DNA of 58,985 bases, the filler included, from Sphacelaria rigidula (taxonomy: Eukaryota): assembly GCA_964200075.2 (NCBI GenBank). It is 5 parts of 5 records of this genome, joined end to end, with 100 filler letters (N's around TTAATTAATTAA, not from the genome) between each part and the next. Parts side by side here need not be neighbours in the genome. Positions count along the whole stretch, not along the records: positions 1 to 11,718 come from CAXNAA020004595.1; 4 more parts are not named here. One strand, written 5' to 3'. The stretch's first letter is position 1, and every line of letters begins with the position of its first letter. This document shows positions 5,401 to 47,269 of the stretch, piece by piece. The notes beneath the pieces were generated by a model. It worked only from the letters and a program-made list of their open reading frames with translations. It ran no database searches and had not been told where the DNA came from. The translations under genes and the position numbers were made by a program.

Positions 5401-5990
5401 TTAGTTTTCTATGTTCTCAACCTGAAAGACCAAATGTCCAGAACCGATTGTTACATGTCAATGCCCCGCGGTCGATTCAAAGATAATCACGTGAGATGTT
5501 TACTTTTGCCGTCCCGTTCGCAGATGGGCATCTGAGGCTTGTGTCCTAAAAAGATATGGTCATATGACATTTCGCTATTCCGTTTGCTTCAGAGATGTTC
5601 GTATGAGGCTTGTGCTCGCTTCGAAGGTAGGAAAATGTGAGAGCTTGCCCTGCACGTAAAACATCTTGTTACTTGGCCAATGTACCCCGAACAAAAATTG
5701 AAGGTCCCACTCGTGGAGACAGTGTTCCGCATCTACTTTTTTGCACTCGGATAACATCCGGCGAAGATGGACGTGATACGAAAGTTTTTGACGGTAGGCG
5801 ATCAAAGATAACGGGACCAAGTGTGATGAAAACTGTAATGTTTTGCGACTTCGCCAGGTGTTTCCGGATGAAGAGTAGGCACGGCGTATTATTTCACCTC
5901 AACAGCTTCGCCGTTGCGTAATTTCTGACGATTTCTTTCGTCGACGATTGAAAGCAACCTCCCCCCCCCCCCCCCCCTTCCCCGAAACAC

Positions 5991-6060
5991 TCCGTCTCGA
6001 AAGGGATGCGTGGTCAATGGTCGAACGACTAAGGCAAGCAACAAATGAGTACGCCCCCCC
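5991..6060 (+). repeat. Short poly-C/poly-G-flanked interspersed repeat, family A (TCCGTCTCGAAAGGGATGCGTGGTCAATGGTC...CAACAAATGAGTACG)
   Basis: Near-identical copies at 42091-42153 (-), 52287-52349 (-) and 47143-47169 (+, cut by the contig end); partial copy at about 48-80. Confidence 0.85.
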
Positions 6061-7607
6061 CTCCCCCGAAACTGTCTGGTGCCGATAGATCATCAACCAT
6101 CTGTCTGAAAATCATTGGTAGGTCAAATGAAAACAATTGAATGGGTAAGGAGTCTGTGTTTTCTCAGTGGAAATATGCCTACGATACACCTTCTGATATT
6201 GGGAGTGCGTCTTTGGTTCGCTGACGCCGAATTGACACGGCAGGTGAGATGAATGCATGGGTCTTACCTGCTGATACTTTTTACCTCAATTACATCAGCT
6301 GACGACCCCGTTTAATACTAAAACCTGAATCCACATCACCTCGCCGCCTTCCTTGCCACGCTGCCAGCGATTGTCACTTTTACATCGGATCTAAAATGAT
6401 GTTGCATTTCTGCATTCTACTAGATTTCACATCAAAAGATCGTCGCTAAGCTCCTTTAGGTGTATGGCGCCACCCTAAACACAAGCACTCCTCCTAAAAA
6501 GGCATACAGACTATTCTAGAAACCTAGGAAATCCCCCTAAACACGGCGGGAGGGGGAAGTCGAGGGTATGGTTCCAGACGACGAAAGTTATGAGGCCGGC
6601 TATACCCAAGAGAACTAGTGTTTCCTATCTGGTCGTCACACGTCACGGCGAACAAGTCTGCCTAGCCCTGTGATGTTCGTACTCGGACATACCGTAACCA
6701 TAGTGAAACGTCGCTCTACCGCAAAGGCATGTCAGTATAAAGAGTTTTCGATAATTTATTTATTTGCCGGAGGCTTGCTTGTGAATTGGAAACCTGAGTG
6801 CTGATTCTCTGCTCCGGTTCATGTCCGTCTGTCTCCAATTCAACGCTACACGGAATCATCAGTGCGGTTTTCAACGCTACACCGAATCATCTCAGAGTTG
6901 AGATTGAGAACTATGGCCAACTCGTCTCACCCGCTGAGGATCCCGCCAGTGCCACAGACGAAGAACCCGAGGACGGAGTCCTCATTTGTTGTGTCAACGT
7001 CGTGTGAACGGCTTGCACTTGTTGCTTCTCACGCTGTCGACCTATCCATTGCTACGTGAAAAAAAAAAAGGAGCAACGGGATACAGGGAGGGTCTGCTTT
7101 CTCACTGCAGCTGTAATGGAGCAGGAGTGGTCGGGATCAACCGCGCAGATCCTTGATGAAATGCATGCAGGCGAATAGTTGTTGCATATCGAGCGTTTCA
7201 AGGAGAGCAATCATCCTGCCGCCACGATCCTGTATGCAGAGTTTGGAGGAAAGATCTCCCGTCCTGAAATCTTTAGAAAAAACCAAGCTGATTTGAAGCA
7301 TCTAGATTCGTGACAACTACTTCTTGAAAACTGGCATCTGGTGGGAAGAGTGCACGCCCGTAGGCGCATACGGCTTCTGGCTTTCCTTTGCACCTGGTAT
7401 CATCGAATTACGTCCGAAATGGCGGAGGACTACGTGTATGAGACCGTGGTCGTACCTACATTTAAGGAACTTCTCGGCACTGCGAAAATATACGCCAGAC
7501 AAATCTCAGACAACGAACATGCAAATAGAAAATCAAATCGAACACACTACCCTGGTGGGATAGAATTTCCGGACAAGCCAATCAGGATTCCAATTCGACC
7601 AGGACGC

Positions 7608-8135
7608 TGTTAAGGTACCGGTTGACTGCTGAGCTAATTTGCCAGCGTTGACTACTGAGCTAATTAGCCAGCGCTGGCTAATTAGCTCAGCAAGCAACCG
7701 GTATCTTAAAAAAGCTAACTTAGGTGGGTTCGTCGCATAACCCTGAGTACTCATATCCCAGAGTTGACATCCCTGTAACCAACGCTGTTCGGGAAGTACA
7801 ACCGGTAGACTTCGACCGCACCCGGTGCTCAACATCGAGGAATATTTGTACTTGCCCAGGGGTTCGAACCCTAAAATCGGTATCTTGACAAAAGCCAAGT
7901 TCTAGGGTTCGAATCCCTGAGCAAGTAACCGTATTCTTCGACGTTGAGCACGGGGTGCGGTCGAAGTCTACCGGTTGAACTTCCCAGACAGCGTTGGTTA
8001 CAGGGATGACCACCCTGGGGCGTGAGTGCTCGGGCTCATGCGACGGATCCACCGAACTTAGCTTCTGTTAAGATACCGATTGACTACTTAGCCAGCGCTG
8101 GCTGATTAGCTCAGCAATCAACCGGTATCTTGACA
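7608..8135. mobile_element. Non-autonomous fold-back element with TGT...ACA termini and a 5-bp TSD (GACGC)
   Basis: GACGC at 7603-7607 and 8136-8140. Ends are TGTTAAGGTACCG and CGGTATCTTGACA. About 7712-7875 is the inverted copy of about 7900-8065. Confidence 0.85.
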
Positions 8136-8449
8136 GACGCCATCTGACTTCGACGAAAATACGGTTCAACGGGGAATTTGATTCTGCTAGGTGCTTCCAT
8201 GAGGACCGGTTCCGACAAACCAGCCGGCGTCTGAGCAGTCTACCAAGCCTCAGGGCATGGTGTAGACCGTGCACGTCGTACCATTATCCTTGGTGATGGA
8301 GGTAAAGCTCTAGGATCGTTCTTGGCACAGATGGATGATTGATAGATCGATTGTTGTACATCAACAGATCCCGCTAAGAAGCAAACCGCGGTCACAAGAT
8401 AAACGTACCCAGGGTGAACAAAAACAAACGGCAGCACTCGCTGAGGGAA

Positions 8450-8872
8450 AAACAATATTACAAATTTGGGATGGATCTTTCATTACGGATGAAAACCCCA
8501 AGGATTAGAATCTTCGTATCCACACCAAATATTCGAAGTATACTTCCATTTCTTCACTTGCTGATAGCTGTTGACAAGCACACCATAAAAATTTGGATTT
8601 CGATAACCGACATGCCGGGGTCCTAGGTGAAAAACCAATTTTGGCGTCCGATCGGACACCTAAAATCCCCCCAAATTGGTTTTTCTTCAAGGATCCCGAC
8701 ATTTCGGTTATCGAAATCCAAATTTGTATGGCGTGTAGTAGTTGTCAATAACTACCAGCAAGTGAAGAAATACAAGCATACTGCGGAGATTTTGTGTGGA
8801 TACGAAGATTTTAATCCTCCAGGTTCTCATCACCAATAAATAATCCATCCCCGATTTGTAAAATCCCATGTT
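8450..8872. mobile_element. Palindromic MITE (~420 bp), same family as 24120-24558
   Basis: Long arms (GGATGAAAACCCC...GATTTCGATAACCGA versus TCGGTTATCGAAATC...) are inverted about a CGTCCGATCGGAC centre; second copy on another contig. Confidence 0.8.
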
Positions 8873-11243: not shown

Positions 11244-11718
11244 AACCTGCTACGACGGAAACACCGCCGTTTTTATGATACTCTGAACCCTTCCCCTTCC
11301 TCGAGACGAATCTATGGTCTCCAAGGATCCACCCATCGCTCCCACGGTGAATGGAAATACTAGAAAGCCGAAAAATGAGAACGGATAAAAAACGAGAGCA
11401 CGCACATGTGGAATATGGAACAACATTACACCCTCACCCCCACCAGGACATGACTTGGGGGGAGGTGTACTCATGATCGTGCATGCCATAGTCATCAGAC
11501 CATTGACCTCGCATCCCTAGAAAGCCGGGACGGAGCACGTCGGGTTTTTGCCGGACCAACTCGCATTCAAACCACCAAGCGCGAGGCGCCGTGATGTGTT
11601 TGGCGAGTGGCATGACGGGTGAGCCGCATCCTGCTAAGATTGTTCGGCCCGAAGCCCACCGATTATCTTGCATTTGGATGGCAGCCTACAATGAGTTACT
11701 TTATTTTCTGGTATCGCC

Positions 11719-11818
11719 NNNNNNNNNNNNNNNNNNNNNNNNNNNNNNNNNNNNNNNNNNNNTTAATTAATTAANNNNNNNNNNNNNNNNNNNNNNNNNN
11801 NNNNNNNNNNNNNNNNNN
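11719..11818. other. Artificial contig spacer (N44-TTAATTAATTAA-N44)
   Basis: 100-nt N run with a central stop linker; identical to the three other spacers. Confidence 0.97.
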
Positions 11819-11953: not shown

Positions 11954-12490
11954 TTAACCCTGACCGCGGAGGTAGGTGAAGGTAGGTGATCTGCTGAATC
12001 GGCATCATGTATACTTGCAAAATGAGGTAAAATAGTGCCGATTCAACCGATCCCCTACACTCGCGGTCAAAGGATCAAAAGAGTCGAAACCTTGATGAAA
12101 CCGAAATATGGAAACAGGGGGAAGAAAAAGGTAGCAGAACTTCACAATACACTACTACTTTTTCTGTTTAGTCAAGCCTTCAACCGCTAGGAGGGTAGTG
12201 CATCTGGGTCATGCATACTTTTTTTAAGGGAAATTCATGTCGATTCAACAGATGACCTACTCTCGCCGTCCAAGGGTTAATTAGACCGCGACGCGGGCAG
12301 TTCATTTAGATCACGCATACTTTTTCGAAGTGAAAATCGATGCCGATTCGGCAGGTTGCCTTCCCTCGCCGTTCAAGGGTTTAACCCTTAGACCGCGAGA
12401 TCAGTCCAGTCTTTCTGGATCATGCATACTTTTTTTCACTTGAAATTGATGCAGATTCAACAGAAGACCAACCTCGCGGTCCAAGGGTTA
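11954..12490. repeat. Cluster of about four ~105-120 bp MITE units with TTAACCCT...AAGGGTTAA ends (piggyBac-like termini)
   Basis: Units at about 11954-12080 (inverted), 12180-12280, 12281-12384 and 12381-12490 share GATCATGCATACTTTTT and GCCGATTCAAC cores and GACCGCGAG/CTCGCGGTC inverted ends. A fragment lies at about 14480-14548. Confidence 0.7.
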
Positions 12491-13547: not shown

Positions 13548-16500
13548 GCCTCACGAAAAATTGGATGCTGTGCCTAATTTCTACATTTTTTGGCCGAAAT
13601 TGCACGAGGATCCCCTCCACACAAGGGCGCACAACATTACTGGGAATGCCTCCGCATATATATATATTTACGGAATTGAGTTTTTACCTTCTCTTTTTTT
13701 TCCTTGGCGTCCCTAGAAATGTTGTGCGTAGTGATGATAAAAATGTTGTGTCAAGACAGGAGGGCACGAAAAAAATAGTCCTAGACCCCCCCCCTTCCCC
13801 CCCGCCCTCGTCAGGCAAAAAAAATCCAAACGAAATGGGCGTTTCGGAGCCTTGTTGACGTCAGTAGATGACGACGACGTTGTCCAAACGATTCATGTGT
13901 GCCGGTTGTGCGTCGGCGCCTCTCTAGCGACTCTTGTATTGTTGTTTGTTGGTGTGTGCTGCTGCATTTGTCCTTCCATGTGATCCAAGTGATGACTCTT
14001 CTTGTACAAGCAAGTACAAAAAGACAAAGGCTTGGTCTTGGATACCAGACACGGGCTCATCTATCTTCACCTCTCCTGTCGTCCAGTAGGCCTGAAGAAG
14101 TCTCCGTGAACAATGGTTGGTACTCGATTTGATTGCAGAAAGAAGAAACGCACCCTTTGCCCGGAGCACTCTCAACCCCCCCCTTGTCCGAGGGTTTTCG
14201 GCATGACTTGGTCGGGGTTAGGGTGTTACCGTTAGGGTTGGCGATATCTCTACAGTACCAGCTATTATTCACCGGCATTTATTCGGTTGCCTCAGCGATA
14301 TCCGGATGTTGTTGTCGTTGTTGTTGTCTTCACATCCAATGCCGTTGCGATACCTGCTCGGTACATTCGTACTGGGCGTCTGATGCGGACGCCTTCCGTG
14401 GTCAAGGGATAGCTACCTATAATGGACATATCTCTACTCGGCTCCCGGTATCCCGGTCTATTCGCTGGCTCTGAGTTGTGTACTATTTTTTTTCAAGTGA
14501 AAGTCATCGCGATTCATAGGAGGACCTCACCTGACGTTGAAAGGGTTTCATCATCTGGTGAATCGCCTGCACCTCCACTTGAAAAATGAAACAAAACAAA
14601 CCAGGATACCAGGAGCCGAGTTTGAGATACCTCTAAATGAAGTGTGAGAAAATGAAACAAAACCAAAAACACAAAATAGACCCAGATGAAAACTCACCGA
14701 ACGCGACACAAGCACAACGGGGATAAATAATGAAGAAGAAAGAGAATACATATGGCTAACCTCAAAAGAGCCGGTGCCGCAGGTGGCCCTTCGGACGTCA
14801 GGGGGTGGCACCCGGCTTTCCAACTCGACGCGCGAGGCCAAGTAGAATGGACACAGGGTCCGACTACGGGCGAAATTCAAGGCCTCAAAGACCACCAACC
14901 AAAGAACTAAAGAATCCGGATACGAGATGAAAAAAATCGAAAAAAAAAAGACTGAAGACAGACGGTACATCAGCCGTTGCTGGACAGACTGTGGGCGATG
15001 GCGACATGGCCTGGAGTTGTTCATGAAGATTGATGCATGTGGTGGTGCATGGGTTTTCGCAAAATTGAGAGTAGAGGATACGATTACGAGTGAAAAGCGA
15101 TCAATTCATGAATGAATAGTTCCGGTTCCGACATGCCTCCTTTGATATTCCCGAGTATGATATCGACGTACAGCTGTAAGTGCAAGCCAGGCAAAGAAAA
15201 GCACGCAGAATACAGGCAAACAACAGAACACAAGATTGGTCGATGAAACCCACTCTCAATCAACACTCTACTCTAAAGTCTCATGAAAACATTGTTATGT
15301 GCAGACTCGAGTGGGCTGCTTCACGGACAAAAGTCCAAGAAGTCAATGATGGTGCACTGACAGGACGCCACGAAGTGCTGCTGTACTAACAGCTGTGGTA
15401 GTAACGCAGGAGATAACAGCACTGGCCATCGACTTTTCCCACACCTTACCAGGGGTGTACACCCGCTCCCACACAGACCACCACAGCTTGCCATAACAGT
15501 ACAGACAGTACAACAGTCGCACAAAAAATTCAAACTGATGACAAAGTGACGGGTGAAGCCCCCCACCTAGCTTGCCATGCCTAGCAGGAAGGGTACTGAT
15601 TGCTATGTCGTGCACGACTCAACTACGCCTGTGTTGTCTGTACTGACTTCCACGAGTGGTGAGAGTATCAGATGGATGTAAGATAAAACCCGCAGTTGAA
15701 CTGAAAAAAAAAAAACACGGGTCAACCGACCACCTGCCACGACTCTTTTACAAGCATACAAAACAGACTCCACTGCTTCATGTTTTGGGTGTTCAGGTTG
15801 TTGTGGCAATATGCAAAAATAAGTCAAGTCACACAGGAGGAAACGTCGCTCACAACCAAAGCTGAGCACAACCACCACTAAGATACCACGAGGGATAATG
15901 CCGGAGGGCCGGCGGGCCGGGAGCATAGCTTGAACCATAGGAGCCTTCAAAACGGAAGCTAACGTTGACGTGGGTTCTATTTCGAGGGATAAACACAAGC
16001 CCGAGGAAGGTGACGAAACGACTCCCACCTTGTTGATTGAGTGAAGTATTCCGCTCCAATCCTCCTTATCCCCACCGAGCAGCCAGCACAAACAAAGCTA
16101 CCTCCGTGCCTTCCCCCTTTCCCTACTCTCTCTTTCTCTCTCTCTCTCTCTCTTGTTGTGGTTAACCTTCCCAGACTAGACCATGCGCGAAAGTGCTGTG
16201 TAAAATCGTAGCTGTCCTTTTTTTGCTCTCCCACAAAGCGTAGCGTTGTTCTGTGTTGCGGAAGCTCAGTACAGTACGTACATCGAGTGTAACTCTGGGT
16301 ACTAAAGTGTAAGGGGGCACCAGAAATGTTTTTTATGGGGAATATATATGCACGGGAAAACGAGACACGGACGGCTGGGCCTCGATTCCATCGACACTTA
16401 CGCAATCTTAACAAATGTTTGGTCAATAGATAGATGCTATAGGCAAAAATGTACTGGGAAAAGTTCCGTCCTACTGCAACACCCTAACCGGGAGAGAGAG

Positions 16501-17840: not shown

Positions 17841-18700
17841 GGCTCACCTCCCACAGATGGGGGTAACTCAAAGTGTATTTTCGCGCGAAGCGCGATTATC
17901 GCCGAGCGTGTGGAAATCGCCACTCGGCAAAAATCGAGGACCCACCCGAAATCAAGAAAGAACTATCGAATGGGACATGTCCTGTATCAGTGCTGCAGCA
18001 CAACCATACTCATACTCTGTCTCGTGTGCTTTAGCTGTCGCTGCGCTGTGGCGTCTTCAGGCCTGTGTGGAAACGGTTTGATCTCCGCTGGGAAAGCCTG
18101 AGCTTTATTTTGTCACTACGTTCGTCTCTATGAAAAATGATGTCAAGTCGGCACGCAGTCCTCTTTACGCGCTGTTGAAATTTCCATGGTGTGTTGGCTG
18201 TTTCGTCTCGAGTCAATCGAACAAGGCGCTTCCCAAACCCATGATTTCTACGCTGTAGTTGTCGCTGTGCTGGTGTGCATCTAAACACTCTACGACGATC
18301 ACGGTGCGATGTGCGCTGGAGAGTGCCTGAGCAGGTGTACCGCTGCATTCTGTGTTTCGGTCTGCACAGAATTGGGGTGTGGGATCAAGGTGCTGTCCAA
18401 ACAAAGAAAGGTTGACACAATCGTCATGTGACGGCTGTGCAGCTGTTTGTTGCGTCTCCTCTGGTATTTCACTCTTTGTCGGGTGCCGTGATCGAGGAAG
18501 ACACGCAAGGCGGGTGCGTGCAGGTTGGGACAAACAAACTGAGCCAGCACGGATCTGCTGTATCCTCGTTTATTGACGGTCGCAGCTGTCTGCCTCGCAG
18601 CGGCACGATGTGTTGGCCACTCAAAGCTACTTTTCGACTCATGTTCCACTCGTTTTTCTCATCTGATTGGAGAAAGGTCGCCGCATTTTGGTGTATTTCA
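17841..18700. repeat. ~850-bp non-coding interspersed repeat, copy 1
   Basis: Colinear with 44551-45360, starting GGCTCACCTC(C/T)CACAGATGGGG...TTTTCGCGCGAAGCGCGATTATCGCCGAGCG. Confidence 0.85.
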
Positions 18701-19159: not shown

Positions 19160-22100
19160 TCATGAACTTCCATCCCCAGGCCAGCGTTTTCGCGGCTGGG
19201 GCTCCCGGTCCCTCTTGTTTTTTTTACGCGGAGCCTGTTCAGGCACCTCTGCGGGGCTGCCCCCGCCTCTACGCCCCCCTCGCCCCCGCCCCCGTTCCCG
19301 TCCTCTTCCTCCTACTACTCTTCCTGCTCCTCATCCTCCTCCTCTTCCTCCTCCTGCTCCGCGTCCCCCTCTTCTTCCGATTCTTCTTCCTCGTCCGATG
19401 GTGGTCCAGACGGCAGCCGACGTTTGCCGCCTCTCCTTCTTGTGCTGTCCGCCTGGACGTCGTCGTCGTTCTCCTCATCGTCCTCGTCTTCGTCGTCATT
19501 CCTTGAAGAAGATCCATTGTCGTCGCTGGAGACCTCGCTTCCCTCTTCGGTGTCCCCGTCCGGGCTTACGGGTGTTGTTTTCTTCTTCCCACGAACCCCC
19601 ACCACCCTGGCGCTTCCTCGTTTCCCCTTGCGTGCGAGACGAGCTTGCAGCTTCTTGGTGACAGCTTTTCCCTCCTCCTCGCTCACACTGAAGCTGGTGC
19701 GCCCTCGGTGTCCCTTTGCCTCAGAGCAGATTCATGACGGTCAACTCATCCGCGTGGTTTTCATCGAGTACCGCCATTCGACATGGCAGTCAGGACAAAA
19801 TATGCACTTCATCGACGCGTTGGTGTACGGTGAGGTCGCAGTGAACTTAAGCGCTGAGGCCAACGTTTTTTATGCTGATGAGCCTTGAGCCTTGGTCAGC
19901 AGGTTTCCTAGGCGCAAACAGGCATCTAGAATGGATGCGTGCTGCTCTTGAGCCGGTCGGTGGTTTGTGTATCCACGACTTGCAACCCTGGCGGCCGCAG
20001 AAGCCGCAAGTGCCGCTCTTCCGTAAGTCCTGTAAAATGGTTGGAGCGCAATAACAAGCAGTGGCGATTTTAGCGGTCATAGTCGTCCCTCAGAACGACC
20101 GACGAGTAGCCTATGTGCAAAAAAATAGAGGTCAAGATAAGTAGAAACAATAATTATGTGTTGCGGTGTTCGGGGCTCACTTTGCTTAGTCTGTTGAAGC
20201 CGGCACAAGGACTGTAGCATCTTGACGCCACCTTGTACGCATTTTCCTGGTCCCTGCGCCATGAAAAATGAGGTATGATTGAACGAGCTCACTGGAAAGG
20301 GACAGACGCCAAGGTAAAGACTAGATAGAGCCTGCGTCTGGTTGACTCCTCAAGAAGCGGGCGACACGTGGTAGGCTTTCCGCCATAAACCTCGTCAGGG
20401 CAAACGGCCGACTTGCTGGCCGCGTCAAACTACACAAGGGTATCCTGATAGTCCTCGCCAACAATGAGGTGACCGGCAGTGGAAAGTTGCTGAGTCAAGC
20501 GCTGAAAGCTGGCTTGTCTGAAAAGAGCATTTTGTTGAGGCTGGAGCAGGCCTTCCATGGCAAGTACAGTGCTAAAGGCTTCATGGTCGCTCTGCCGGTC
20601 ACCTCATTGTCGGCGAGAAATATCAGGATACTCTTGTGTTGTTTGCCGCGGCCGGTAAGTCGGCGGTTTGCCCTGACGAGGTTTATGGCGGAAAGCCTAC
20701 CACGTGTCGCCCGCTGCTTCCAGTATTTTTCGCGGTCTTCAGCTTCTTGAGGAGTCAACCAGACGTAGGCTCTAGTCTTTATCTTGGCGTCTGGCCCTTT
20801 CCAGTGAGCTCGTTCAATCATACCTCATTTTTCATGGCGCGGGGACCAGGCAAATGCGTACAAGGTGGCGCCAAGATGCTGTACAGCCCTTGTGCCGGCT
20901 TCAACGCACGAAGCGGAGTGAACCCCGAACACCGCAACACATAATCATTGTTTCTACTTATCTCGACTCACGTTTATACGCCGGCTTGTGCTGAATATCC
21001 TCGCAAGGCTAGCACATTCCTCCCTGGCTGTCCACCCTTACTGTGCACCCTGGTCGAGGTACTCCCGCGACAGTTTCTGCCATAGCATGAAGAGCCAAGC
21101 CCCTTCCTCCCACCCGTACCTCCCGGGGAAGTTGTTCGCTGGTCAGTATATGGGTTACCATGGGGTAGTTCTTCACTAATGGGTCTGGGACACGTGGGGT
21201 GAGCCACGGGCAGGCATGGATCACGCCTTTTACTTCCCTGGTCCCCACAGACTGCCCTCCAACACCGCCACCGGCTTCAGCTACCCCACCGCTCTCTCCC
21301 TCTTGCGACGCAACACCCATGCAATTTATGTCATCACCGTCTTCATTCGTGCCAGAACAGCCCGGTTGAGCTCCTTCCAAATGCTGGTCAGGGTCTAGTT
21401 GCATCGATGTACTAAGTCTGCCGTCGTCATCGTCGTCACTGATTACCACTTCTTCCGCCGATTTCTTTTCCTCTGTACTGCATGCACCCCGAACTTCCAC
21501 GTGTCTTTTTTGTCGATGCTGCCCACACTTGCACTTGTCGTGGAAAAGGGAGTGATCGACTTCGTACACTTCTTGGCGTTTATGATATCCCCACGTTGTT
21601 TAGAGATGGGCAACGCCCGGCAAAAAGTTACATTGTCAGCAAGTCGTGTTGCTCTGTTATCGACATATACGTGAGTTGCAACAAGTTGCGCCAAGAAAAT
21701 CACCATGTCAGTGTCAATTGAGTCAACAAATCGGTCGGACAGTAACCTGCAACGCCGCAGTGCTCCACGATATACTCCCTGGTGTGCTCTTGAGCCTGTA
21801 TGCTGCCCGGTCTGCGTTTCCTGCAAAAATGCGTGGCGCTGCCGAAATCATGCCCACATTCGCAGATCCAGTTCCTTTTTTCGTTTATCATCGCAACTTT
21901 TCCCATCAAACGCTGATGCTGCTGCTGCCCTTCTCTTGCGCGTACACAGCTGTGTAGTGCAAGTTTCGGGCACTGCACTCAAAGTTAGGTGATATCAACG
22001 ATAATACAAGATAAATTTCGTGTGTCAGCACGCTCGGTGTCATTACAACTTGGTCAGCATCAATACATCCTTGCGCAAAGATTTACTGCTCTCTTCCTCG

Positions 22101-22440: not shown

Positions 22441-23536
22441 GCTTTTGCTTTTTATGCGCGCATACAATTTCGCATGAAACGCGGTTTTGCGCATAACCTT
22501 GTGCGTTTTTTGAACACACATGTTTTTGGAGCATAACAAAGGCGTACAAGCCAAGTATACGCATAACTTGACGCATATAGTCCTCCAATGGGATTATGCA
22601 CCCCATGCCCTGTAGCTAGTAGGTGCCCACGGGTGCTCCATGTGGCATGGCTCGTCGAGTCGTGGCGTTTGTGTTCGTAGTTTCTTCCTTTGAACTTTGT
22701 TGCGGGTCTGAGATCGGTTATTGTGCTGTATGTAAACTACTCTGTTTCTGTTAAAACCGGTAAAAAAAATGAATGTGTCATATTTCACAACAGACGTAGG
22801 CTTTTGCTTTCTATTCGCTTTTTTTTTTCATGCCGGAAGGTACGTTCCATGCGGGGTGCCGCTTGGAACCGCCTCAAGAAGGACGCGAGAAAGGCGCATG
22901 AGTCGCGCATATTTCCCCAAAATAAGCATAAAGTGGCGCATAAATTTCACCTTTGAGCATAGAAACAAATGAAATGAAACGATTAAAATAAAATAAAAAA
23001 ATGCCCATGAAAAGCAAAAGCCTAGGTGAAGGTGCTCGCTGCGCGTCGCAGAAAACAACTCCACCAACCTCCACGCAGAGTATCGCCGCACTTACCGAAC
23101 TCTTTAAATCTCGAATCCTATTACTTCGTGCCTGCAGACGACCTCATTACCGCAGCCAACTTGCTGCAGCACAGGTGCCTTGCTTCATCGAAGTATCATC
23201 AAACTGAGATATCGCGAATCCGAGTCGTACATATACATAGAGCGCATCAACTCGTGTCAACCTCAATTAATACATGAATACACATGATTGAAAATTGGAT
23301 TGAGGTTGCTTGACCCACGTGTTGTCACCCACAGAGTGTCCCAAACCTTAACTCTGACATATTTGCTATCACTGTATAAGGAGATACCGATGTGGAGTGC
23401 GTTTGTATGGGGTTTGATAACCCCCCCCCTCCCCCCCCCCGACATATTCCAGGATTTAAAACTGGGGCTTAGGGTCTGGGACTTTTCTTGGGGGGGGGTG
23501 TACTCATGATCATGCATGCCATAGTCATAAGACCAT

Positions 23537-23636
23537 NNNNNNNNNNNNNNNNNNNNNNNNNNNNNNNNNNNNNNNNNNNNTTAATTAATTAANNNNNNNN
23601 NNNNNNNNNNNNNNNNNNNNNNNNNNNNNNNNNNNN
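23537..23636. other. Artificial contig spacer
   Basis: Same 100-nt N/TTAATTAATTAA/N structure. Confidence 0.97.
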
Positions 23637-23780: not shown

Positions 23781-26700
23781 TTATGCCCGTTGCCTTCTAG
23801 TAAAAACGTGAAACGGTCGATTCCTGTTCGGTTCTGTACTGATTGGCACATGCCAATGCCAGCAAAGTTTGGTAATGCTGTTCGACAGTATCTTCGCAGG
23901 TTTCGCCGGACTCAAAGCGGCCACTTTAGCGTGCGAAATATCGATCAGCATGCAGTCTGGACCCAAATCGCGGAAAATAAATGATTCAATGGGCAGAGTG
24001 TTTTCCCCCAACTTGAGGTCGAAACGAATGAAGTCAACTACTTTGATGGGTGCATTATCCGCGCTTCTAAGATCCAAAGATCCGCTTGGGACTGGTTTGA
24101 TATTTGCCATGTTCAGAGTCGAACACGGGATTTTACAACTTGGAGATGGATGTTTCATTGGGGATGAAAACCCAGAGAATTAAAATCTTCGCATTCACAC
24201 CAAATCTATGAAGTATGCTTTCATTTCTTCACTTCCCGGTAGCTATTGACAACTACTACACGCCACACAAATGTGGATTTCGATAACCGAAATGTCAGGG
24301 TCCTACGTGAAAAATCAATTTTGTGGGATTGTAGGTGTCCGATCGGACGCCAAAAATGGTTTTTCACTCAGGACCCCAAAATTTCGGTTATCGAAATCCG
24401 AATTTGTATGGCGTGTAGTAGTTGTCAATGGCTACCAGCAAGTGAATAAATGGAAGCATACTTCGAAAACTTGGTGTGGATACCGTACGAAGATTTTAAT
24501 TCTCCGGGTTTTCATCCCCAATAAAACGTCCATCCCCAATTTCTAAAATCCCGTCTTGTAGGGTGCGAACGGATGGTCTTTAGGCTGATGATGGGCAGGT
24601 CGAAGGCTGAATCTATGGCCAGGGTCTCGACGGCACTATCATTCACTCTCGCTGGTACTTCTCTAATACAAGCCGGATATATTGTCACAGATCCATTCGG
24701 GTACCGTGAGAGTGAAGGATCAGAAAGTCCGATCGGTGTTTTGCATTGATATTACCAGACGGTTGTGCAATGAAAGCTGCTTGCGGAACTCTCTCCAAGC
24801 ACGACGGCTGGCTACACGGCACGTCGTTTTGACTCGAGTTGCTCACTTCGAGCTTCTGCTTGACTCCAGCATGTACTTTCGCTACCTCTTCAGAAGGCTT
24901 CGTACTCAATCTCGTTGAAGAGGCTACTGTACTTTTAGAAAGCCGCGTGCCTTTCCCGATTATACCAACCAGAGCGTTTTCTCTCGGTTTGTTACTACTC
25001 AGCGTCATGCGTGCTACTGGCTTCGTCTTAAACGTCGACTGTGCTACAGTAGTTGCCCTTTTCGCTAAACATAATTTACCCTGGCCGGGCGAGGTCTCGC
25101 GTGCTGGGCACCTTCAGAGGCCAAGGGCGGTCAATTCCTCCCCCTGTTTCTCTGCCGGATGGCAGTTTTCTATCGTAAGCGTTTTTCCTGTACTTGCAAT
25201 ATTTATACGAGCACGACTGTTGAACTTCTTTACCCGTGCAGAATATTATCGCACGGGGGGGTCTGCTACTAGATCTGCTTCTGAGCTCATACCGTACACG
25301 CTTCCCGCCATCTTTGGGTCCAGCCGCTTGCCCTTGCGTCTCTGCTGAGATTGATGTGCGTTTGCGCGATCTACCTCGTTCTGAACTGCGGTTCCTCTCC
25401 TCAAGGAGTTTGTCCAATTTTCCGTCCAGATCAGCCACGGTTTACGCGAGCTGTGCAGTTGAACGTTTCGCAGCAGCAGATGAGACGTGGGAAGCGGAGA
25501 CCATGTTTTCAGGTACTGAACCGCACAAGTTGTTTGTTTCGTGTTTCTTTGCTCTAGCTCGTGCTGTCTGAAAATGGTGGGTGAGATCTTTCCTGATTGT
25601 TTCCACTCTAATGTGGGGCGGTAAACCTGCTTCAAAAGCTGCTGTCTGACGAACCTCTTGAAGGGAACTTGCCGGATCTCTGCCTTTTGGTGTCACTCTG
25701 GCAGCTTCGGCATAAAAACGAGGGTGCGCCTTGGCCACCTCGATTGCATACGCTTCGATGGTTTTGACCATCTTTGTACTTCAATCCAGCGATAGCTCTT
25801 GCTAGAATGGCAATACGGTTTGGGGGCGAGTACACGTTGGTGTATGCGTCCACGAGTCTTTTTACGATAGCCTCCCCCCAAAATCAGCCCAAAACTGCCA
25901 CGAAGAAAATGGTCATACAGCGCCTGACGTTTGGTTTCAGGCTACATGAAGAACCTTACGTGGGCGGCATTGGCGAAAAAAAACCCGAGCGCGGGAATTC
26001 CATTGCTGCTCGTTGTGCTCGCCTTTTTTCATTTCGATTCGCGTGTAGATTTTGCCTCCCCAAATCAGCCACGTTTTGGGGGGAGCGGTCGTGGAAAGTG
26101 TCCCAACCACTCGTTCCAAGATGTTTGGGATCGAGTGTCTACGTCTCTGCCTTGCGCTCAAAGCTATTCGAGCTGTGCTTCTGGGCGCCATTCTAGTGAA
26201 CCAGTGGTAGATCGGAGTACGCGTCAAGGGCTGTACCACGGAGTGGTAGCTGGAGGTGCTTGATGCATCTACGGTTGATGACCTCTGAACTGCACTGATC
26301 CTGAGAGTTCACTCGCACTCTCGATCTGTACTCACGCATGATGGTTGGTATATCCTCTGTTGCGAGTCCATGGAAAGCCTAGGTCAGATTGTTTTGGGGT
26401 AAATCGTGTCGCTTCCCCGGCATATATTTCCCCTCTTCTCGAATCTGCGAATAGTGGAGTGTCGTTGGAGATGTCTCTTCGGGTGTTCATCGGAGTTTTC
26501 GTTTCTGGTTGGATTTGAGCATTTGGGCACGAGTTACTATGAGTGGAATTGCGGGAGACTACCCGTTGGAGGGTATTCATCATATCTGCTTGAGGCGCAT
26601 TCGTGCGTGCGGGCTTCTTACGTAGACGAGGTGGGGGTGTGCTGTTTACTGCGCTGCCAACTCGCTGACCGAACGTTGAACCAGGCACTACCTCTTTACT

Positions 26701-27000
26701 CAGTTAGCTACTCGTGCTACCGTACGTCACCTGTACAACCTGGCGTAGAGCGTCCTCCGATGGTGGGATCATACCTGATGCCGGGAGGGCGCACGTCGGG
26801 GGGTCAGAACCGTCCCGAGCGTAACTTTCGAGGACATTAAGAGCGACGCGCAAGCCCGCTGCCTTGGCCTCCTCGACGTTGGATGCTGGGGGGTAGTAGG
26901 TCTCGCCAGCCTCGTTTGGTTTGCTGTCTTCGTCGCTGTCGCTGCCTGGAGCCAAGTCGTGAAAGCGACAACCGTCGCTGACACTATCGATAGTACCACC
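23781..27000 (-). pseudogene. Decayed LTR retrotransposon (Ty3/Gypsy-like) gag and aspartic protease
   Basis: Gag-like fragments (AAFEAGLPPHIRVETIRK, a coiled segment DLDGKLDKLLEER, Cys-rich CSYKYCKY) precede a retropepsin-like region ARVNDSAVETLAIDSAFDLPIISLKTIRSHP | TLNMANIKP...LRSADNAPIKVVDFIRFDLKLG...GPDCMLID. The region has frameshifts and stops and is split by a MITE. Confidence 0.7.
24120..24558. mobile_element. Palindromic MITE inserted in the retrotransposon protease
   Basis: Ends CACGGGATTTTACAA / TTCTAAAATCCCGTC; same family as 8450-8872. The protease peptide resumes across it. Confidence 0.85.
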
Positions 27001-27976
27001 TCCCCAACTTCTGCTGTCCTTTTGTTCCTCCTCTGTACGGGGCTGTTGCTTTGACCTCTTCCTCCCGCTTGTTTTTTACCTCTTGATTTACTGGCGGGGA
27101 GTAGGCCATGTGGCAGGGCTGGTCTCCTCCGCTACAACTGTCATCATCGCCTCCGCGGGGTCGGAGTTCGATTCGGCTTTGCCTGTCTTGACGTCGGCTG
27201 GGCGGGTGCCGGCGTGACCGTTGCTGGAGTAGCGTTACTGGGGTTCTTGGCCGGCATGTTTTTTGTTGATATCGTCTATAAAACTGTTCTTTCGTAAACT
27301 TATGCTGAATCACCGTTTTCGGGTGAGTTTGTTTCGGATGGTATCGCCACTGTAAACTAGACTTTGCAAGGGGTGAGGCAGTGGAGCTACGTGTCTTGAT
27401 GAAGAACGTTCTTGTGCCTTGCTGCGGAAGGAGCTCCAAAGCGAGGCGTATTTTTTTCCCCTGTTATGTGGAGCAAGTATTTCGCCGTAAGCCGGTGGTA
27501 GGCACAACGAGCGACCGAAATTGCACGGAGGCTCAGCCAACGGTCAATCACGGGCTCGTACAGTGGCTCTTATTATGATGAGCTCTTGCTACCGGAGGAC
27601 CCTGTTACCTAGTTCCCAAAAGATGCAGTTTAACGGGTTCGAACGTTCCGAGTCCGCTCATGTATGACACTGACGAACCCCGTTCCTGTGACTGTTTCTC
27701 CAGTTTACATGTGTGTTGTGATCATCATTACGTTCATACAACGTGGTTTCCACCATAGTGTTGTATAGCTAAGCAAGGTAGGGAGGAGAAAATGAAGGCA
27801 GGTGCGTGGCCTCCCGTCAAACATCAAGTCAGGGCCTCACGTATGTGTCTGGCACCACAATTTCGATGGTAGATCCCACCGTGGGTGACGGACTAAGCAC
27901 AGAGCACAAATACCTCATCGCTGTGTCGTAGATCTAGCAAAATGGACCCTGAAAATAACCCTCTTGACAGGAACAC

Positions 27977-35353: not shown

Positions 35354-35453
35354 NNNNNNNNNNNNNNNNNNNNNNNNNNNNNNNNNNNNNNNNNNNNTTA
35401 ATTAATTAANNNNNNNNNNNNNNNNNNNNNNNNNNNNNNNNNNNNNNNNNNNN
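35354..35453. other. Artificial contig spacer
   Basis: Same 100-nt N/TTAATTAATTAA/N structure. Confidence 0.97.
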
Positions 35454-38400: not shown

Positions 38401-38925
38401 GGACGGCATAACCCCGAGAAAAGGATCATATCGGCATCAGAGTTGCTGGCTCCCTAGCATTGATCGTATTGTTTTTGTCGTGGATGGCTCGTGTTGATCG
38501 GTGCCGTACGCAGACAATACCCACGCGATGCCCAGCGGCTGCCCAGGGTTGGGGCATCTTGTGGTGAAAATACAGACAGTCGGTACTGCGACAGAAAGTT
38601 GTTGAAAGATGAAATGGCGAAGACGACCCAGCACTCTACACACGAGATATCAGACAGCTACCGTTAACATGTATATCTCTTGCGTGTGCGACCCCGTGTG
38701 CTAGAGCACCGCCGCCTTCAGAAGGTATACATCGTGAGCTTGGTTCATGACTCGGCGATTATGAAAATATAATTAACAACAACACTGTTCTGGGCTGCAG
38801 CAAGCTAATGGAGGGAAATGAGGCCCAGACCGGGCTCAGACAAAAAATATTCAAACAATCTTGTTGACCTCTCTGCGGCACATGGGGCGCATGTTTGTCC
38901 ACGAAGATCCCGAATAAAATCCGTT

Positions 38926-39382
38926 CAGACCGCTCCTTGTAACAGACTAAAGTGAAAATCTGGGAAAGTGCCTTCGTGGAGCTTCTACGTCGTTATACGC
39001 CCTAAAAGAGAGCTCGGCGGAGTTCGACACCTTGGAATTACCTGCTCTACTAGTTGAGACGGTTCCAGGACATACTCCCGTTCTTCGGTGGCCGCAGTCT
39101 TCCTTTTGACCAACCAAGTATTTTTGTCCAAAAACGATAGAAAAAAATAACTTTTTGTCTCTGGACTTGATCGTTCTTAGACAAGAACTCTTGCTTGGTC
39201 AGAATAAAAACTGCGGCCACCTGAAAACGGGAAGATATCCTGGAACCGCCTCAACTAGTAGAGCAAGTCACTCCATAGTGTCAAACCCTGCCTCGCTCTC
39301 TTTCAGGGCGTAGAACGACGCAGAAGGTCCGGAAAGGCACCTTTCCAGATTATAATGGTGTCTGTTATTAGGGCGTGTCTCA
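38926..39382. mobile_element. Palindromic MITE (~450 bp), copy 1
   Basis: Inverted arms (CTCTACTAGTTGAGACGGTTCCAGGA / TCCTGGAACCGCCTCAACTAGTAGAG); second copy at 46354-46835. Confidence 0.85.
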
Positions 39383-40946
39383 ACACCTTTTTTTCGATGG
39401 AAAAAAATGGGGCGGTAGAGTCAATTTGAGCGATTTTTTCTCGTTTTGATGCAGTCGGATCCGGATGTATTTTCAAGCTTCCGATCGAGGAAAGATCGTG
39501 TCATTCGTGAAACGGCACATGGTCCCTCGTGTACGGTACAGACAGCCCGTACTGTCTGCGCTGCTTGCAAAAAGGGTGTCTCGAGTGCGTGTGTGCGTGT
39601 TTGGTGCAGGAGGATGAAAAGGAGAAGCGGGCAACATGCAGTGCAGACAGCCCAGGTCTATGAGTCCTCTCTGCTTACGATGCGACGTGAAAAATGACTT
39701 CGGAACGTGCATCTTTGTACTACCTGCACTGTCCATGAGCGTGCACGCAACTCGGTTGCCCACCGTACCACACGGTTCGGTCACGGATCCCTACCATGAG
39801 AGAAGATGCGCAAGTTTTCGTTAACAAAAAATAAATAAAGCACACCCAACTACTGCAGTATTTCTAACGCTGTGCTTAACTCGTGCTCTATGCTGCAGGG
39901 TTGTTAACGGTGTCTGAGAATGAGGTGGATGGAGTTTGCATGGTCCTGTGAACAGGTGCTATTTGGCGTGGTGGTCCGTAAGATATAAGTCGAGTTGCGC
40001 TTCGTGCCTTTCGATCACATGTTTTCGATCGAAAACGATTGTTTTTCACCTCGAGGAATTATTCTCCGCGCGTCGCTAATTGCGATTTTGAGTTGAAGCC
40101 TTCTAGGAATATAAATGCGGTGGACCTATCAGATCGTCAAAATGAAATTCGATCGCACTTTTTCGATCAACTTTTTTTTTAGCCAAGACGTGCCGTAAGA
40201 AGCGGCCTCAAGAACGGAAAACAACGAGAAAGTAGCTGATTTCACTTGGAATATTATAACAACCCGTACCCATGGACTTGGTGCGCGGTAAAAGGTCCCT
40301 TGGACTCTACAGACTAAGCCTTGCTTCACCCATGACAGGTGCAAGCCGCCAGTACTTGCTGTAAGCCTCAGTCAGCGGGGTTCGCCGCACACAAATGCTG
40401 TATGGCCGTCGTTTTCGTTCGTCTCACTTTTGGTTGACCCTAGTTGGGGTACAGCTACCGAAGTACTGGTGAGAGATACGGATACATGCTATGCATACGG
40501 AATGGGTACGGATGGGTCGCCGGTGAGTTGTAGTGTCTCGTACCTGAGCCATTTACTCTCTCGAGGGTTCTTCCGAGTGCCATTACCGAGGCTGCATACC
40601 TGCCGAGACACGCTAGTAGCGCTGTAGATCGTACGCATTTCATCAACAAGACACGTGTGGCCACCTCTCTGTTGTGTGGCGTCCACAGTGAAGAAGAAAT
40701 CCACAAGTGGTGCAAAACAGATCATGTCACCGTTGATGTTTTTCTACTTGCCTGCTAATCTGCATGATTCCGTCTACAACACATGATTGCTGTCTTCTCG
40801 CTGGAGCGGCGGGACTCTGGCGCTGCCCAAGGTTTACTTTTTTGCCCGACCATTTTGACCTCTAACGTGCTCGCTTCGAGCAGCTTTCCGTTTGTATCTC
40901 ACACGCACTTTTGACGTGTTCGTCTCCCCCGTTGGTGCCGTTGCAG

Positions 40947-42841
40947 AGTATGGACCACAGGGGCACGAAGCAATTTCCAGGATTGGTGGCCACACTAATA
41001 GCTGACGATGACCTCGAGGTGCGTTAACCTTTTGGACTCTCATCGTTCTCCGGCCACACTGCTGTGCAATTCCGTCGTGGGGTAGTCGCGTATTGATTGA
41101 GTCATTGTTGAATTGATTGTCGCAATTTTATCTGACCCCCCAGGGATCCAGCCGCGGTCACATGATGGACGTACCCGAGAAAAAGCAAAACTGATACGTA
41201 CCCGTGTATGTGAGTCTCTCTGTGTTTATGGGTTTGGAGCACGACAAGCCAGGGCATAGCGAAGTTCCTCTGCTTGGCACGCGCATGCGCGTTCGTGCTT
41301 CCACTACGTGTGTGTGCGTGTATGACTGTGTGGCCATGTGAGTCAAAGGTTTGTGTGTTGTGTGCTCATGCAGGCCCTTGGGGAGCGGTCCGCAGATGAA
41401 ACGCCTTCCCGTACGCACGGAGTGGCGTACAGGGTGCCCGACGACAGAGCGGAAGCGGTTCTGGAAGGACTTGACGTCAGGGAGAGGGGCGGCTACATTA
41501 GGGCAGTCGTCGATGTTTACCCGTCAGCGGGTGAGCGAGGTGAAACGTCTAGCTAAGGTGGTGTGACGTCGGGCCTTCGTGTCCTGCTGTCAGGGAATGT
41601 GTTGAAGCTTACATATATGTATATATATATGTGTGTGTAAATATATATATTCCTCTCGTGCCTTCGCAGAGAAATTGTTGATGCGTTTCTCGTGGACGTT
41701 GGTCTAGTCTAGTTGTGCATACCAGGCACTGAATTCGCCAAAAATATGTTTCATGTATTGGGTTCCTACAAGAATGTACTGTACAGCCGCGCCCGTTAAT
41801 CTAGCGGTACAGCTAACGCAATCAGGGCGGTAGAAACGCAGGTTCGATTCTTCGCCAGATACGTCCGGTTTAACGTTTTCTTCATAAGTCTTACTTCTGT
41901 CGTTGAGAATTTGAGGGCGTGAGCAGCAAAAATGAACGGTTTGGCTGAGTTCGTTACGTTGCGACAGCCGGCCGGGGAACGGGAGTGGTGACCCAATCTG
42001 CAATATTAAACTGCAAGGCGTGTATGGGGGGAAAAATGGGTTGATCCCGAGGGAAGGAAAGGATCGGCAGTGACGGAGGGGGGAGGGGGGCGTACTCATT
42101 TGTTGCTTGTCTTGGTCATTTGACCATTGACCACGCATCCCTTTCGAGACGGAGCATGAGCATAGGGGGGAGGGGGGGGGGAAGGAAAAGTGGGCGGCCC
42201 TGTGCACGGCCGGGTAGTGGTGGCCAAAAAACACCTGCACTGCGGCCGCCCGGCACAAGACCGGTTTCATGCCGGTTGAGCGTCCTCTTTTTTGGTAACT
42301 TGGAGGGAACACCCACGAGATGCTCCATGGATGAAACCAAGTTCTAAATGGCGTGGATGAGTGCTCGCTGTCAGGGGTCGGTTCTCGAGAGGGCGATACG
42401 CCACACATGGAGGCACTTGTGGAGTGAAATGGTGTTGCACGCATGTGTGATAATGGTGCTGATCCAATGTCATGCCGGTTCGGCGAAGCCAGAGCAAAAT
42501 CGGCATCAAATTCTTCGAAAATAGTGCGGAGCAAAACACACCACCCCGACTGCCGTGTGATATAAAATCGGGCGGCGCTATATTGTGGCACACATTGTAC
42601 TACGGAATGTCGTGAATTTGTTGCTGTGTCGTACTTGACTGTTTGTGTGAAGGTTTGCACGAAAAGGTTCACGTGCGTCGCGTCGCACGTTATCATCACG
42701 GACAAAGACATGAAAGACAGTAACGTCAGCTGTTCACATGCCCCACCGACGCGTTCTCTTCGGCAGTGTACGAGCTCAAAGGCGGCAGGTCCCGTCCTCC
42801 GGATGTGCCGAAATTCTATGCTACATGAACATACACGCACG

Positions 42842-44550: not shown

Positions 44551-45360
44551 GGCTCACCTCTCACAGATGGGGTATATCAAAGTGAAAAGAAAGATTTTCG
44601 CGCGAAGCGCGATTATCGCCGAGCGTTTCAAAATCGGCATTTGACAAAAAATGAGAATCTGTCTAAAATCAGTGGAAGAGGCATCACATGGGACATATCC
44701 TGTTTCACTATGCTGCAGCACATACTCAGCGCTCTCTAATGTTCTGTAGCTGTCACTGCGCTGTAGTGTGTTCGGACCTTCACGGAGACGGTTAGGTCTC
44801 CGCTGGGGCTGCCTGAATTGCTTCAGTATTATTGTGTTAGTCTCTCTGTATAATGATGTCAGTCGGCACGCAGTGCTGTCTTTACGCTGTGGGGAACTCC
44901 GTGGTGTGCTGGCTGTTTGGTCTTCCGTCGAACGAACAAGGCGCTTCCCATACCCATCATTTCTATGCTGAAGTGTTGCGGTGCATTTTATAACTTGACG
45001 AACATGGTGTAATGTGCGCCGGAGAGTGCCTGAGCAGCTGTACTGCTGCATGCCGTGTTCAGGTCTGCACAGAGTTGCTGAGGGATCAAAGTGCTGTCTG
45101 CACAAAGTTGAAACAACCACATGATGGCTGTGCAGCTGCCTGTTGCGTCTCCTTTGGTACTTCTGTAGTCAGGTTTTGTGATCAGACAAGACGCGCAAAA
45201 GCGGATGCGTGCAGGTTGGGGCAAAGAAAGTGAGCCAGCATGGAGCTCCTGTACATTTGGCGATTGATGGTCGCAGCTGTATGCTGTCGTAGCGACGCAG
45301 TGTGTGGGCCAACCAAAGCCATTTTACAGCTCATATGCAACTCGTTTCCCCTGTCTGGTC
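44551..45360. repeat. ~800-bp non-coding interspersed repeat, copy 2
   Basis: Colinear with 17841-18700. Confidence 0.85.
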
Positions 45361-45575
45361 GGTGAACGGTCCTAAAATCAAGTGTATCCATGGAAACGAA
45401 GGAAAGTGGTCCGTGGTGGGTAAACCGTCGTTGAACAGCCCGGACTCTTTTCGGGGTGTAACAGCCCTTCCCCCCCCCCCTTCATCCGACCCGCCGAACA
45501 TTTGACCACGCTTCGCGCTTGGTGATATTGCAAGCCTGCCCCTGCGAGACCCCAGTGTGCTGCGTCCCGGCTTTG

Positions 45576-45696
45576 TAGGGATGCGACGTCAATAGTCGCA
45601 TGACTGCGGTATGCAAGATCATGAGTCCCCCCCCCCCCCCCCCCCCCCTCCCCACCCCCACGATTAGCGCTGTTACACTATCAACATCGTTCCCTA
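45576..45696. mobile_element. ~120-bp MITE with a TAGGGATG terminus and internal poly-C (family B)
   Basis: TAGGGATGCGACGTCAATAGT ... ACTATCAACATCGTTCCCTA form imperfect TIRs. Related ends occur at 11456-11519 (-) and 23489-23536 (-). Confidence 0.65.
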
Positions 45697-47169: not shown

Positions 47170-47269
47170 NNNNNNNNNNNNNNNNNNNNNNNNNNNNNNN
47201 NNNNNNNNNNNNNTTAATTAATTAANNNNNNNNNNNNNNNNNNNNNNNNNNNNNNNNNNNNNNNNNNNN
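47170..47269. other. Artificial contig spacer
   Basis: Same 100-nt N/TTAATTAATTAA/N structure. Confidence 0.97.

Follow-up and report, generated by a model that had tools for sequence, protein, structure and literature searches.

A fold-back, putatively MITE-like element with palindromic end blocks and a tRNA-like part in the brown alga Sphacelaria rigidula

A 528-bp segment of the Sphacelaria rigidula genome (positions 7608 to 8135) starts with TGT, ends with ACA, and is built of nested inverted repeats. It raises the question of what kind of mobile element it is, and whether it moved as DNA or through an RNA copy. We analyzed it within a window of 58,985 nucleotides, along which all positions are counted. 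The window is made of five joined parts, the element lying within the first, and the N spacers that separate them, each with a 12-bp linker (11719 to 11818, 23537 to 23636, 35354 to 35453, and 47170 to 47269), join sequences whose adjacency is not genomic.

The insertion signature that the original prediction had read from the sequence was found as described, with TGT…ACA ends and a target-site duplication (TSD), GACGC, on either side (Table 1). Lengths from 3 to 11 were compared, and only length 5 gave a match; a 5-bp match at equal spacing occurs at 74 of 57,643 window positions (0.13%). TG…CA ends combined with a 5-bp duplication are what an integrase-type DDE enzyme leaves; a Copia integrase or a Ginger2/TDD transposase would, by analogy, be the candidates. 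The 13-bp end motif had been placed at five sites, and all five were found. Four are exact (7608 and 8066 on the plus strand, 7878 to 7890 and 8123 to 8135 on the minus strand), and the fifth carries 1 mismatch (7699 to 7711, minus strand). The other four of the nine matches in the window have 2 mismatches, where 3.7 are expected by chance.

Evaluation of the internal architecture revealed two palindromic end blocks, T1 and T2, that form hairpins (z of −5.3 and −11.4) and are at once direct and inverted repeats of each other, as had been claimed (in direct orientation they agree at 63 of 70 aligned positions, and in inverted orientation at as many). Both reduce to a block of 78 bp, once the 26-bp tandem duplication in T1 and the 8-bp deletion in T2 are taken into account. 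The hairpin proposed for the left block stands, but its boundary shifts, since the block ends at 7711 and not at 7712, in AAA and not in ACA. Between the blocks lies the predicted head-to-head pair of arms, and positions 7712 to 7876 are 84% complementary to positions 7900 to 8064. The central end motif is what is left of a third block, T3, the rest of which is deleted. The ends of the interior are themselves inverted, which lengthens the terminal inverted repeat (TIR) to ∼90 bp; past ∼12 nt, the similarity of the two interior ends has no significance (161 of 2,000 shuffles). The whole element folds at −379 kcal/mol (z of −35), a stability that none of 100 shuffles equaled. Its longest ATG-led frame has 76 codons, and its longest open frame had no homolog among proteins of near length.

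Table 1. Features of the element and of its immediate flanks, in window coordinates
Feature	Position	Strand	Remarks
Left flank, 98 stop-free codons to the insertion point	7314..7607	+	No homolog found; may be no gene
Left target-site duplication, GACGC	7603..7607	+	5 bp
Left palindromic end block, T1	7608..7711	.	78-bp block plus 26-bp tandem duplication; inner end motif with 1 mismatch
Perfect 36-bp palindrome, core of T1	7655..7690	.	Public contigs (k=31) break there (records 1, 9, and 26 end at 7687)
A-box-like motif, right arm of T1	7683..7690	+	Faces the interior end that has only a degenerate B box
Arm A, interior unit reversed	7712..7876	-	Final ∼10 nt missing through the central deletion
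B box of arm A	7860..7871	.	12-bp perfect palindrome
Stub of central block, T3	7875..7890	+	Final ∼16 bp of the 78-bp block, including one end motif; A box deleted
Arm B, complete 175-bp interior unit	7891..8065	+	TIR extended by a ∼12-bp inverted repeat between the two ends of the arm
B box of arm B	7906..7916	+	Inside a tRNA T-arm-like stem-loop
Right palindromic end block, T2	8066..8135	.	78-bp block with 8-bp deletion
Right target-site duplication, GACGC	8136..8140	+	5 bp
Right flank, 51 stop-free codons	8141..8293	+	In frame with the left flank once one TSD copy is removed

We then looked for relatives of the element in public contigs. Those of four of the ten runs listed with element sequence, some of which are labeled "algae metagenome", were mapped to positions 7200 to 8450 (runs X1 to X4), and the comparison rests on 40 of 178 variant rows, 15 of 65 joints, 24 of 462 loose ends, and 32 of 1,300 pieces. 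The four runs gave 358, 292, 304, and 92 mapped contigs, most of them under 95% identity to this copy (290 of 358 in X1). Summed contig depth, which is no copy number, stayed at single-copy level in the flank and rose steeply between the bins holding 7608 and 8135 in all four runs. Among the loose ends listed, 14, 12, 17, and 8 contigs per run continue past 8135 with an agreement of 0.43 to 0.46, and such mixed sequence fits many insertion sites together with some continuation into an interior. The element is a real, multicopy, nonautonomous one, and the claim of a noncoding mobile element with integrase-type ends holds for a diverged family. Pattern scans for copies elsewhere gave 8 matches to a 16-mer in viral contigs, none extending beyond 17 nt, and nothing in three further scans; in metagenomes, none and then 1 bacterial match of 21 nt; and in prokaryote genomes, 6 matches to a 19-mer, which we took as chance.

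The structures of the copies in the mapped contigs vary and include monomer-type, dimer, and deletion forms. Among the joints listed, one from 7638 to 8092 with 3 letters between restores a complete block (31 + 3 + 44 = 78 bp) in all four runs, and others add block sequence at the B-box end of an arm (7873 to 7647 in three of the four runs, 7871 to 8097 in all four, and 7878/8090 in three). Since the B-box end of the arm is thus followed by a complete block in other copies, the basic unit probably consists of two 78-bp blocks with a 175-bp interior between them, ∼331 bp in all, and this locus is probably a head-to-head dimer whose central block is mostly deleted. Whether monomers occur beside dimers had been put forward as a check, and the monomer-type junction with its full block is indeed present in other copies; free monomers with 5-bp TSDs of their own may exist, although among the pieces listed no monomer is whole and no second TSD was seen. 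A head-to-head arrangement also appears in other contigs: records 2 and 18 (from X1 and X4), of 143 nt, cover 7824 to 7973 with 21 to 22 other letters and pass through both arms across a shortened center, with junction letters unlike those of this copy. A monomer-type junction would cost these records at least 29 mismatches in their first 47 nt, and they therefore represent another head-to-head junction, close in size to the one seen here and found in two of the four runs among the pieces listed. This suggests, at the level of contig sequence, that the dimer form has multiplied or recurs at a hotspot.

Two further places in the contigs deserve mention. Behind 7838, loose ends among those listed (11, 8, 6, and 3 contigs) show a relative that leaves the arm for a T-rich stretch without the B-box segment and that may be a subfamily or a longer parent. 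Just to the right of the element, a short repeat (8386 to 8423) coincides with a depth peak and, among the loose ends listed, with varied ends on both sides.

The two arms could also have arisen at the site itself, by insertion of a monomer with its TSD and addition of the second arm through template switching at the palindromes, or the locus could be an assembly chimera in which this site is fused to the center of a different copy. We consider this unlikely. It would agree with the slippage duplication in the left block and the deletion in the right one, with the breakage of contigs at the perfect palindrome of T1, and with the finding that no contig among the pieces listed bridges 7688 to 7966 with the letters of this copy. 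The arms themselves speak against it. We compared them at 25 of the 40 listed variant sites, leaving out 7 flank, 3 block, and 5 center rows; at the 20 sites where X1 has another majority letter, the opposite arm has that majority letter 16 times, a third letter 3 times, and the same private letter once. Arms that are 84% alike and share 1 of 20 private changes have each decayed on their own; neither a recent copy made in place nor a mirror artifact would look like this, and the similarly sized second head-to-head junction argues in the same direction. That the dimer was inserted as one unit, as originally proposed, is likely.

As for the insertion itself, its left junction is bridged in all four runs and its right junction in one, with two further runs holding 30 letters inside. 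The insertion appears common to the samples of two studies, as no empty-site joint occurs among the 15 of 65 joints listed. At its center, no contig among the pieces listed, in any run, has the window's own junction letters (7871 to 7877). The best runs contain only 46% of the sampled words; contigs break at the 36-bp palindrome and omit rare variants, and the missing junction letters are therefore no disproof of the center.

LTR-type reverse transcription needs both a polypurine tract (PPT) and a site for primer binding (PBS). No TGG directly follows any of the three blocks (the first is at +13, at +14, or absent), only 6 of the 15 positions before each of the three blocks are purines, and no canonical PBS or PPT is present in the element in either orientation. 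This, together with interior ends that are inverted repeats, leads us to favor mobilization at the DNA level. The element had been labeled a TRIM/MITE hybrid. The MITE half of that label is kept, the element being short (528 bp), noncoding, and bounded by TIRs and a TSD, while the TRIM half is dropped, since neither a canonical primer site nor a polypurine tract is there. The TGTNR termini and 4- to 5-bp TSD of Ginger2/TDD transposons are likewise found, as TGTTA and TGTCA ends and as 5 bp at this site.

We propose, with a probability of roughly 0.45, that the locus holds a MITE-like nonautonomous element of a brown alga that moved as DNA and whose palindromic blocks permit composite forms. 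The ∼331-bp unit, with its ∼90-bp TIRs, would be recognized by a retroviral-integrase-type DDE enzyme whose gene lies elsewhere and which would bind the 13-bp end motif, cut at TG…CA, and insert the element at a stagger of 5 bp; the likeliest partner would be a DNA-level transposase similar to Ginger2/TDD. Because the palindromic block carries the end motif on both faces, any two blocks would be usable as ends. A block-arm-block-arm-block dimer would first have been deprived of the greater part of its central block and would afterwards have moved by the outer ends. Together, the block's right arm and the first ∼30 nt of the interior would make up a tRNA-like head with an A box and a B box, probably of tRNA or SINE origin, that may drive polymerase III (Pol III) transcripts from intact monomers and would be broken in this copy. 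The occurrence of free monomers bearing TSDs, the partner enzyme, the DNA rather than RNA intermediate, the movement of the dimer, and any transcription are what we infer. Against a DNA-level route, cut-and-paste has no need of a tRNA-type A and B box, which points to an RNA step, and, to judge from the curated Ectocarpus library, an integrase with TG…CA ends and 5-bp TSDs has been demonstrated in brown algae only for the retroviral type. It also counts against our proposal that no partner enzyme turned up in the collections scanned, that the TSD is read at this one site, that the center of this copy has no matching contig letters, and that an empty-site joint is absent from the 15 of 65 joints listed.

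Internal deletion that joins two TIRs is the usual origin of MITEs. The 331-bp unit could accordingly be the long TIR of a larger transposon, and this copy an internal-deletion derivative in which two such TIRs are joined, the center of the element being the deletion joint. Records 3, 11, and 19 (one in each of three runs), in which arm B adjoins 1.5 to 1.7 kb that has no listed piece on the stretch, could hold the interior of such a parent on the B-box side of the arm, but these pieces are at single-copy depth and may be flank. Both TDD-4 and TDD-5 carry TIRs of 260 to 297 bp with 5-bp TSDs (PMC2836005), and the five other fold-back elements of the window show the same two-arm form. Such a parent leaves unexplained why the inner end of the TIR has a second complete end motif and palindrome, and we regard it as decidedly unlikely.

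The fold-back shape alone is ordinary here, since the same 59 kb contain five other near-full-length fold-back elements of 400 to 880 bp. Two of them (8455 to 8872 and 24122 to 24557) form a second MITE-like family, ∼82 to 86% alike, with ∼200-bp arms and no clear TSD. Two copies of a third family (38911 to 39396 and 46355 to 46826) are ∼79% alike, and an 837-bp element (20131 to 20967) has arms that are 90 to 95% complementary.

The element lies within a stop-free frame of 149 codons, which it splits; more in-frame sequence is found upstream, broken by two stops. The frame gave no Pfam match under an E value of 0.1, no homolog among longer proteins, and an Atlas recognition below threshold, and two profile matches were discarded as repeat-driven artifacts. 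Dropping 2 nt restores the frame as well as dropping 5 nt does, and its continuity is a weak sign of a clean insertion or of the TSD. Elsewhere in the window, positions 48301 to 48828 hold a heme O synthase exon (PF01040 family), with best matches in Laminaria, Ectocarpus, and Choristocarpus at 58 to 62% identity, which places the host among the brown algae or their near relatives. Decayed minus-strand frames at 23781 to 27463 had no Pfam match above the cutoff, and by eye they resemble gag/protease remnants of an LTR retrotransposon. A tandem array of ∼109 bp in 2.7 copies (12203 to 12490), with a related unit 2 kb away (14488 to 14529), possibly represents subterminal repeats of a DNA transposon, and a dispersed repeat of ∼700 bp occurs at 17877 to 18593 and 44594 to 45284 (75 to 85% alike). 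Dispersed short repeats beside C or G runs (5990 to 6066, 11446 to 11554, 23479 to 23536, 42078 to 42180, 45541 to 45638, and 52278 to 52376) may possibly be ends of an RTE-X-dependent element, by analogy with C-rich ends in Ectocarpus.

We then analyzed the tRNA-like part. The strict B-box motif has three matches in the window, all inside the element. Both of the B boxes announced as pointing outward are present, but the left one is a perfect palindrome and reads both ways. In a monomer model, in which an intact block precedes arm B, the A-box-like motif lies 44 nt ahead of the B box, which is the spacing of a tRNA. The pairing of the two boxes at that distance occurred in 1 of 20,000 dinucleotide shuffles (72 of 20,000 with loose motifs), for motifs picked after inspection of the sequence and a monomer modeled from this copy. 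On the same model, ARAGORN found a tRNA-like fold at thresholds up to 88% and none at 90% or at its default, and 26 of 1,000 shuffles passed at 85% and 6 of 1,000 at 90%; in this fold, the place of the anticodon loop is taken by the end motif. The A-box-like motif is incomplete, having no downstream GG, and the B box lies 15 nt outside the block. We regard the evidence for a tRNA or SINE origin as moderate, and Pol III could, on the modeled promoter, transcribe intact monomers. The suggestion that the element is Pol III-transcribed is therefore plausible as regards a tRNA-type promoter in the monomer, but improbable for this copy: no A box lies 30 to 60 nt upstream of either B box in the dimer, and it is thus probably no Pol III template.

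Other tRNA-related identities were set aside. ARAGORN gave no tRNA in the window, and none of 16 Rfam matches reached the gathering score or belonged to a tRNA family (14 were microRNA hairpin models), so a functional tRNA gene was rejected. The calls that ARAGORN makes across the real center at 90% are a product of the inverted arms. A likeness of one arm to an initiator-tRNA anticodon primer site lies ∼25 nt from the block and depends on a letter private to arm B. SINE2 elements have a 5′ tRNA head, a simple-repeat or poly(A) tail, TSDs of variable length, and no TIR; here the head is internal, the ends are fixed inverted motifs, and there is no tail.

The tRNA-like part would also suit a retroelement of the TRIMp3 kind, functionally analogous to Helenus and Cassandra, in which the 78-bp blocks would be very short palindromic LTRs. 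Pol III would start near the center of the 5′ block, directed by the block's A box and by the B box that lies a short way into the interior; the RNA would be reverse transcribed and inserted by a Copia element, and the dimer would arise by fold-back second-strand synthesis or by recombination of palindromic LTRs. The rarity of the box pairing among shuffles and the fold that ARAGORN still reports at 88% would suit this scheme, as would the family-majority T at 8065, which gives a run of four T's at the 3′ border of the interior. The independent divergence of the arms (16 of 20 sites private, 1 shared) is what is expected if they were identical at insertion. A 5-bp TSD is also made by Ectocarpus Copia and by fungal and plant Helenus (311 to 1,263 bp), and Cassandra provides self-complementary LTRs and shared-LTR arrays. 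The same motifs were, on the other hand, chosen with hindsight and tested on a monomer modeled from this copy; the fold is lost at 90% and at the default; one variant does not have the B-box segment; the two ends of the interior form inverted repeats; and neither orientation shows a canonical PBS or PPT, while Helenus has both, along with both boxes inside its LTR. We hold this scheme to be rather unlikely.

Helenus and the TRIMp3 group, as described by Kojima in 2024 (PMC10886601), are short and noncoding, with terminal direct repeats, TG…CA ends, and tRNA-type A and B boxes, as is the element; Helenus also shares a nonfunctional tRNA fold, a 5-bp TSD (in fungal and plant families), and sizes starting from 311 bp. 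Unlike Helenus, the element has its B box outside the block, a palindromic block of 78 bp, inverted interior ends, and no canonical PBS or PPT, and its A and B boxes would not both lie within an LTR unless all 331 bp of the unit made up a single LTR. Fungal Helenus and Copia use an alternative PBS complementary to the tRNA anticodon loop (PMC10886601). Neither stramenopiles nor palindromes nor inverted repeats come up in the main text of that article, and three motifs and two taxon names are absent from its supplement. Cassandra TRIMs, as presented in the available text of PMC7215508, likewise combine a terminal repeat that contains a Pol III promoter, LTRs that are self-complementary, a super-hairpin fold of the whole element, and repeat-sharing multimers, but with a promoter of the 5S type, tandem direct arrays, a PBS and a PPT, and in land plants.

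On the transposon side, Bao et al. (2010, PMC2836005) describe Ginger2/TDD elements with TGTNR ends, TIRs of 45 to 297 bp, and a 252-bp nonautonomous member, and propose that Ginger TIRs could derive from two opposed LTRs. The element resembles them in its TGTNR ends, long TIRs, and 5-bp TSD; it differs from animal Ginger2, which makes 4-bp TSDs at AT-rich RTATAY targets, in its GC-rich target, and the descriptions in the available text of that source are without palindromic blocks or tRNA boxes. As far as the available text goes, the curated Ectocarpus library (PMC12477816) has no Ginger superfamily, and the TSD is 5 bp in 23 of its 23 Copia rows but 4 bp for Gypsy. It does hold DNA5-N1_Ec32 (Dinatale et al., 2025, PMC12477816), a 502-bp element with a 5-bp TSD, TGTTG…CAACA ends, and 103 annotated copies, curated as a DNA element with the remark "possible Ginger?". 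By description only, the two are alike as nonautonomous brown algal elements with TGT…ACA ends and 5-bp TSDs, and some relatives of the S. rigidula element share its five terminal letters; unlike ours, DNA5-N1_Ec32 is described with a 9-bp imperfect TIR, and no fold-back or internal repeats are noted in that entry (PMC12477816). Also considered and put aside were the Ectocarpus repeat Sower (PMC3145265), as far as its source describes it; the most abundant Ectocarpus family, now recognized as RTE-X dependent and with C-rich ends unlike those of this element (PMC12477816); and, for a poorer fit of the TSD as given in the available text of PMC10045372, IS481EU (∼4, 15, or 25 bp, in parabasalids) and IS3EU/GingerRoot (6 bp).

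It follows that the view of the element as belonging to no standard category was overstated. TRIMp3 joins Pol III boxes with 5-bp TSDs, Cassandra adds self-complementary LTRs and multimers that share them, a TGT…ACA element of 502 bp with a 5-bp TSD is already curated in Ectocarpus, and the fold-back shape is common in the window. No title or abstract listed in searches of the open literature, subscription papers and Repbase aside, describes the full combination of features. The element has the testable end features of MITEs and of Ginger2/TDD, fails as a TRIM, and resembles TRIMp3 in its promoter parts; its design is unusual, yet close to known miniature transposons.

The two lines of evidence could also be combined in a Pol III-transcribed retroelement that needs neither a host-tRNA primer nor a PPT, its block being promoter, fold-back self-primer, and integrase end in one. 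Judging from the modeled fold, the block could then have originated when the 5′ half of a tRNA, ending at the anticodon-loop position, was duplicated in inverted orientation, and the head-to-head dimers could be unresolved fold-back products that still integrate. We give this very little chance; if true, the element would be an intermediate between LTR-type and TIR-type integrase substrates, a step of the sort that Bao et al. envisaged for Ginger TIRs. Taking the evidence together, we favor the MITE-like element moved as DNA over a TRIMp3-like retroelement, a long-TIR parent, and an in-place or chimeric origin.

Brown algal repeats are mostly unclassified, according to the available text of PMC12477816, and the enzyme behind the short TG…CA elements with 5-bp TSDs in these algae is only guessed at. 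The sharp 13-bp end motif can serve to locate the partner of this family in a full assembly, and so to tell whether a Ginger-type transposase or Copia is responsible. Should the tRNA-type boxes be nonfunctional, the element is a further MITE family with a captured tRNA-like piece, mainly useful for annotation. If they are functional, TRIMp3-like elements would reach the stramenopiles, with one that works without a canonical primer site.
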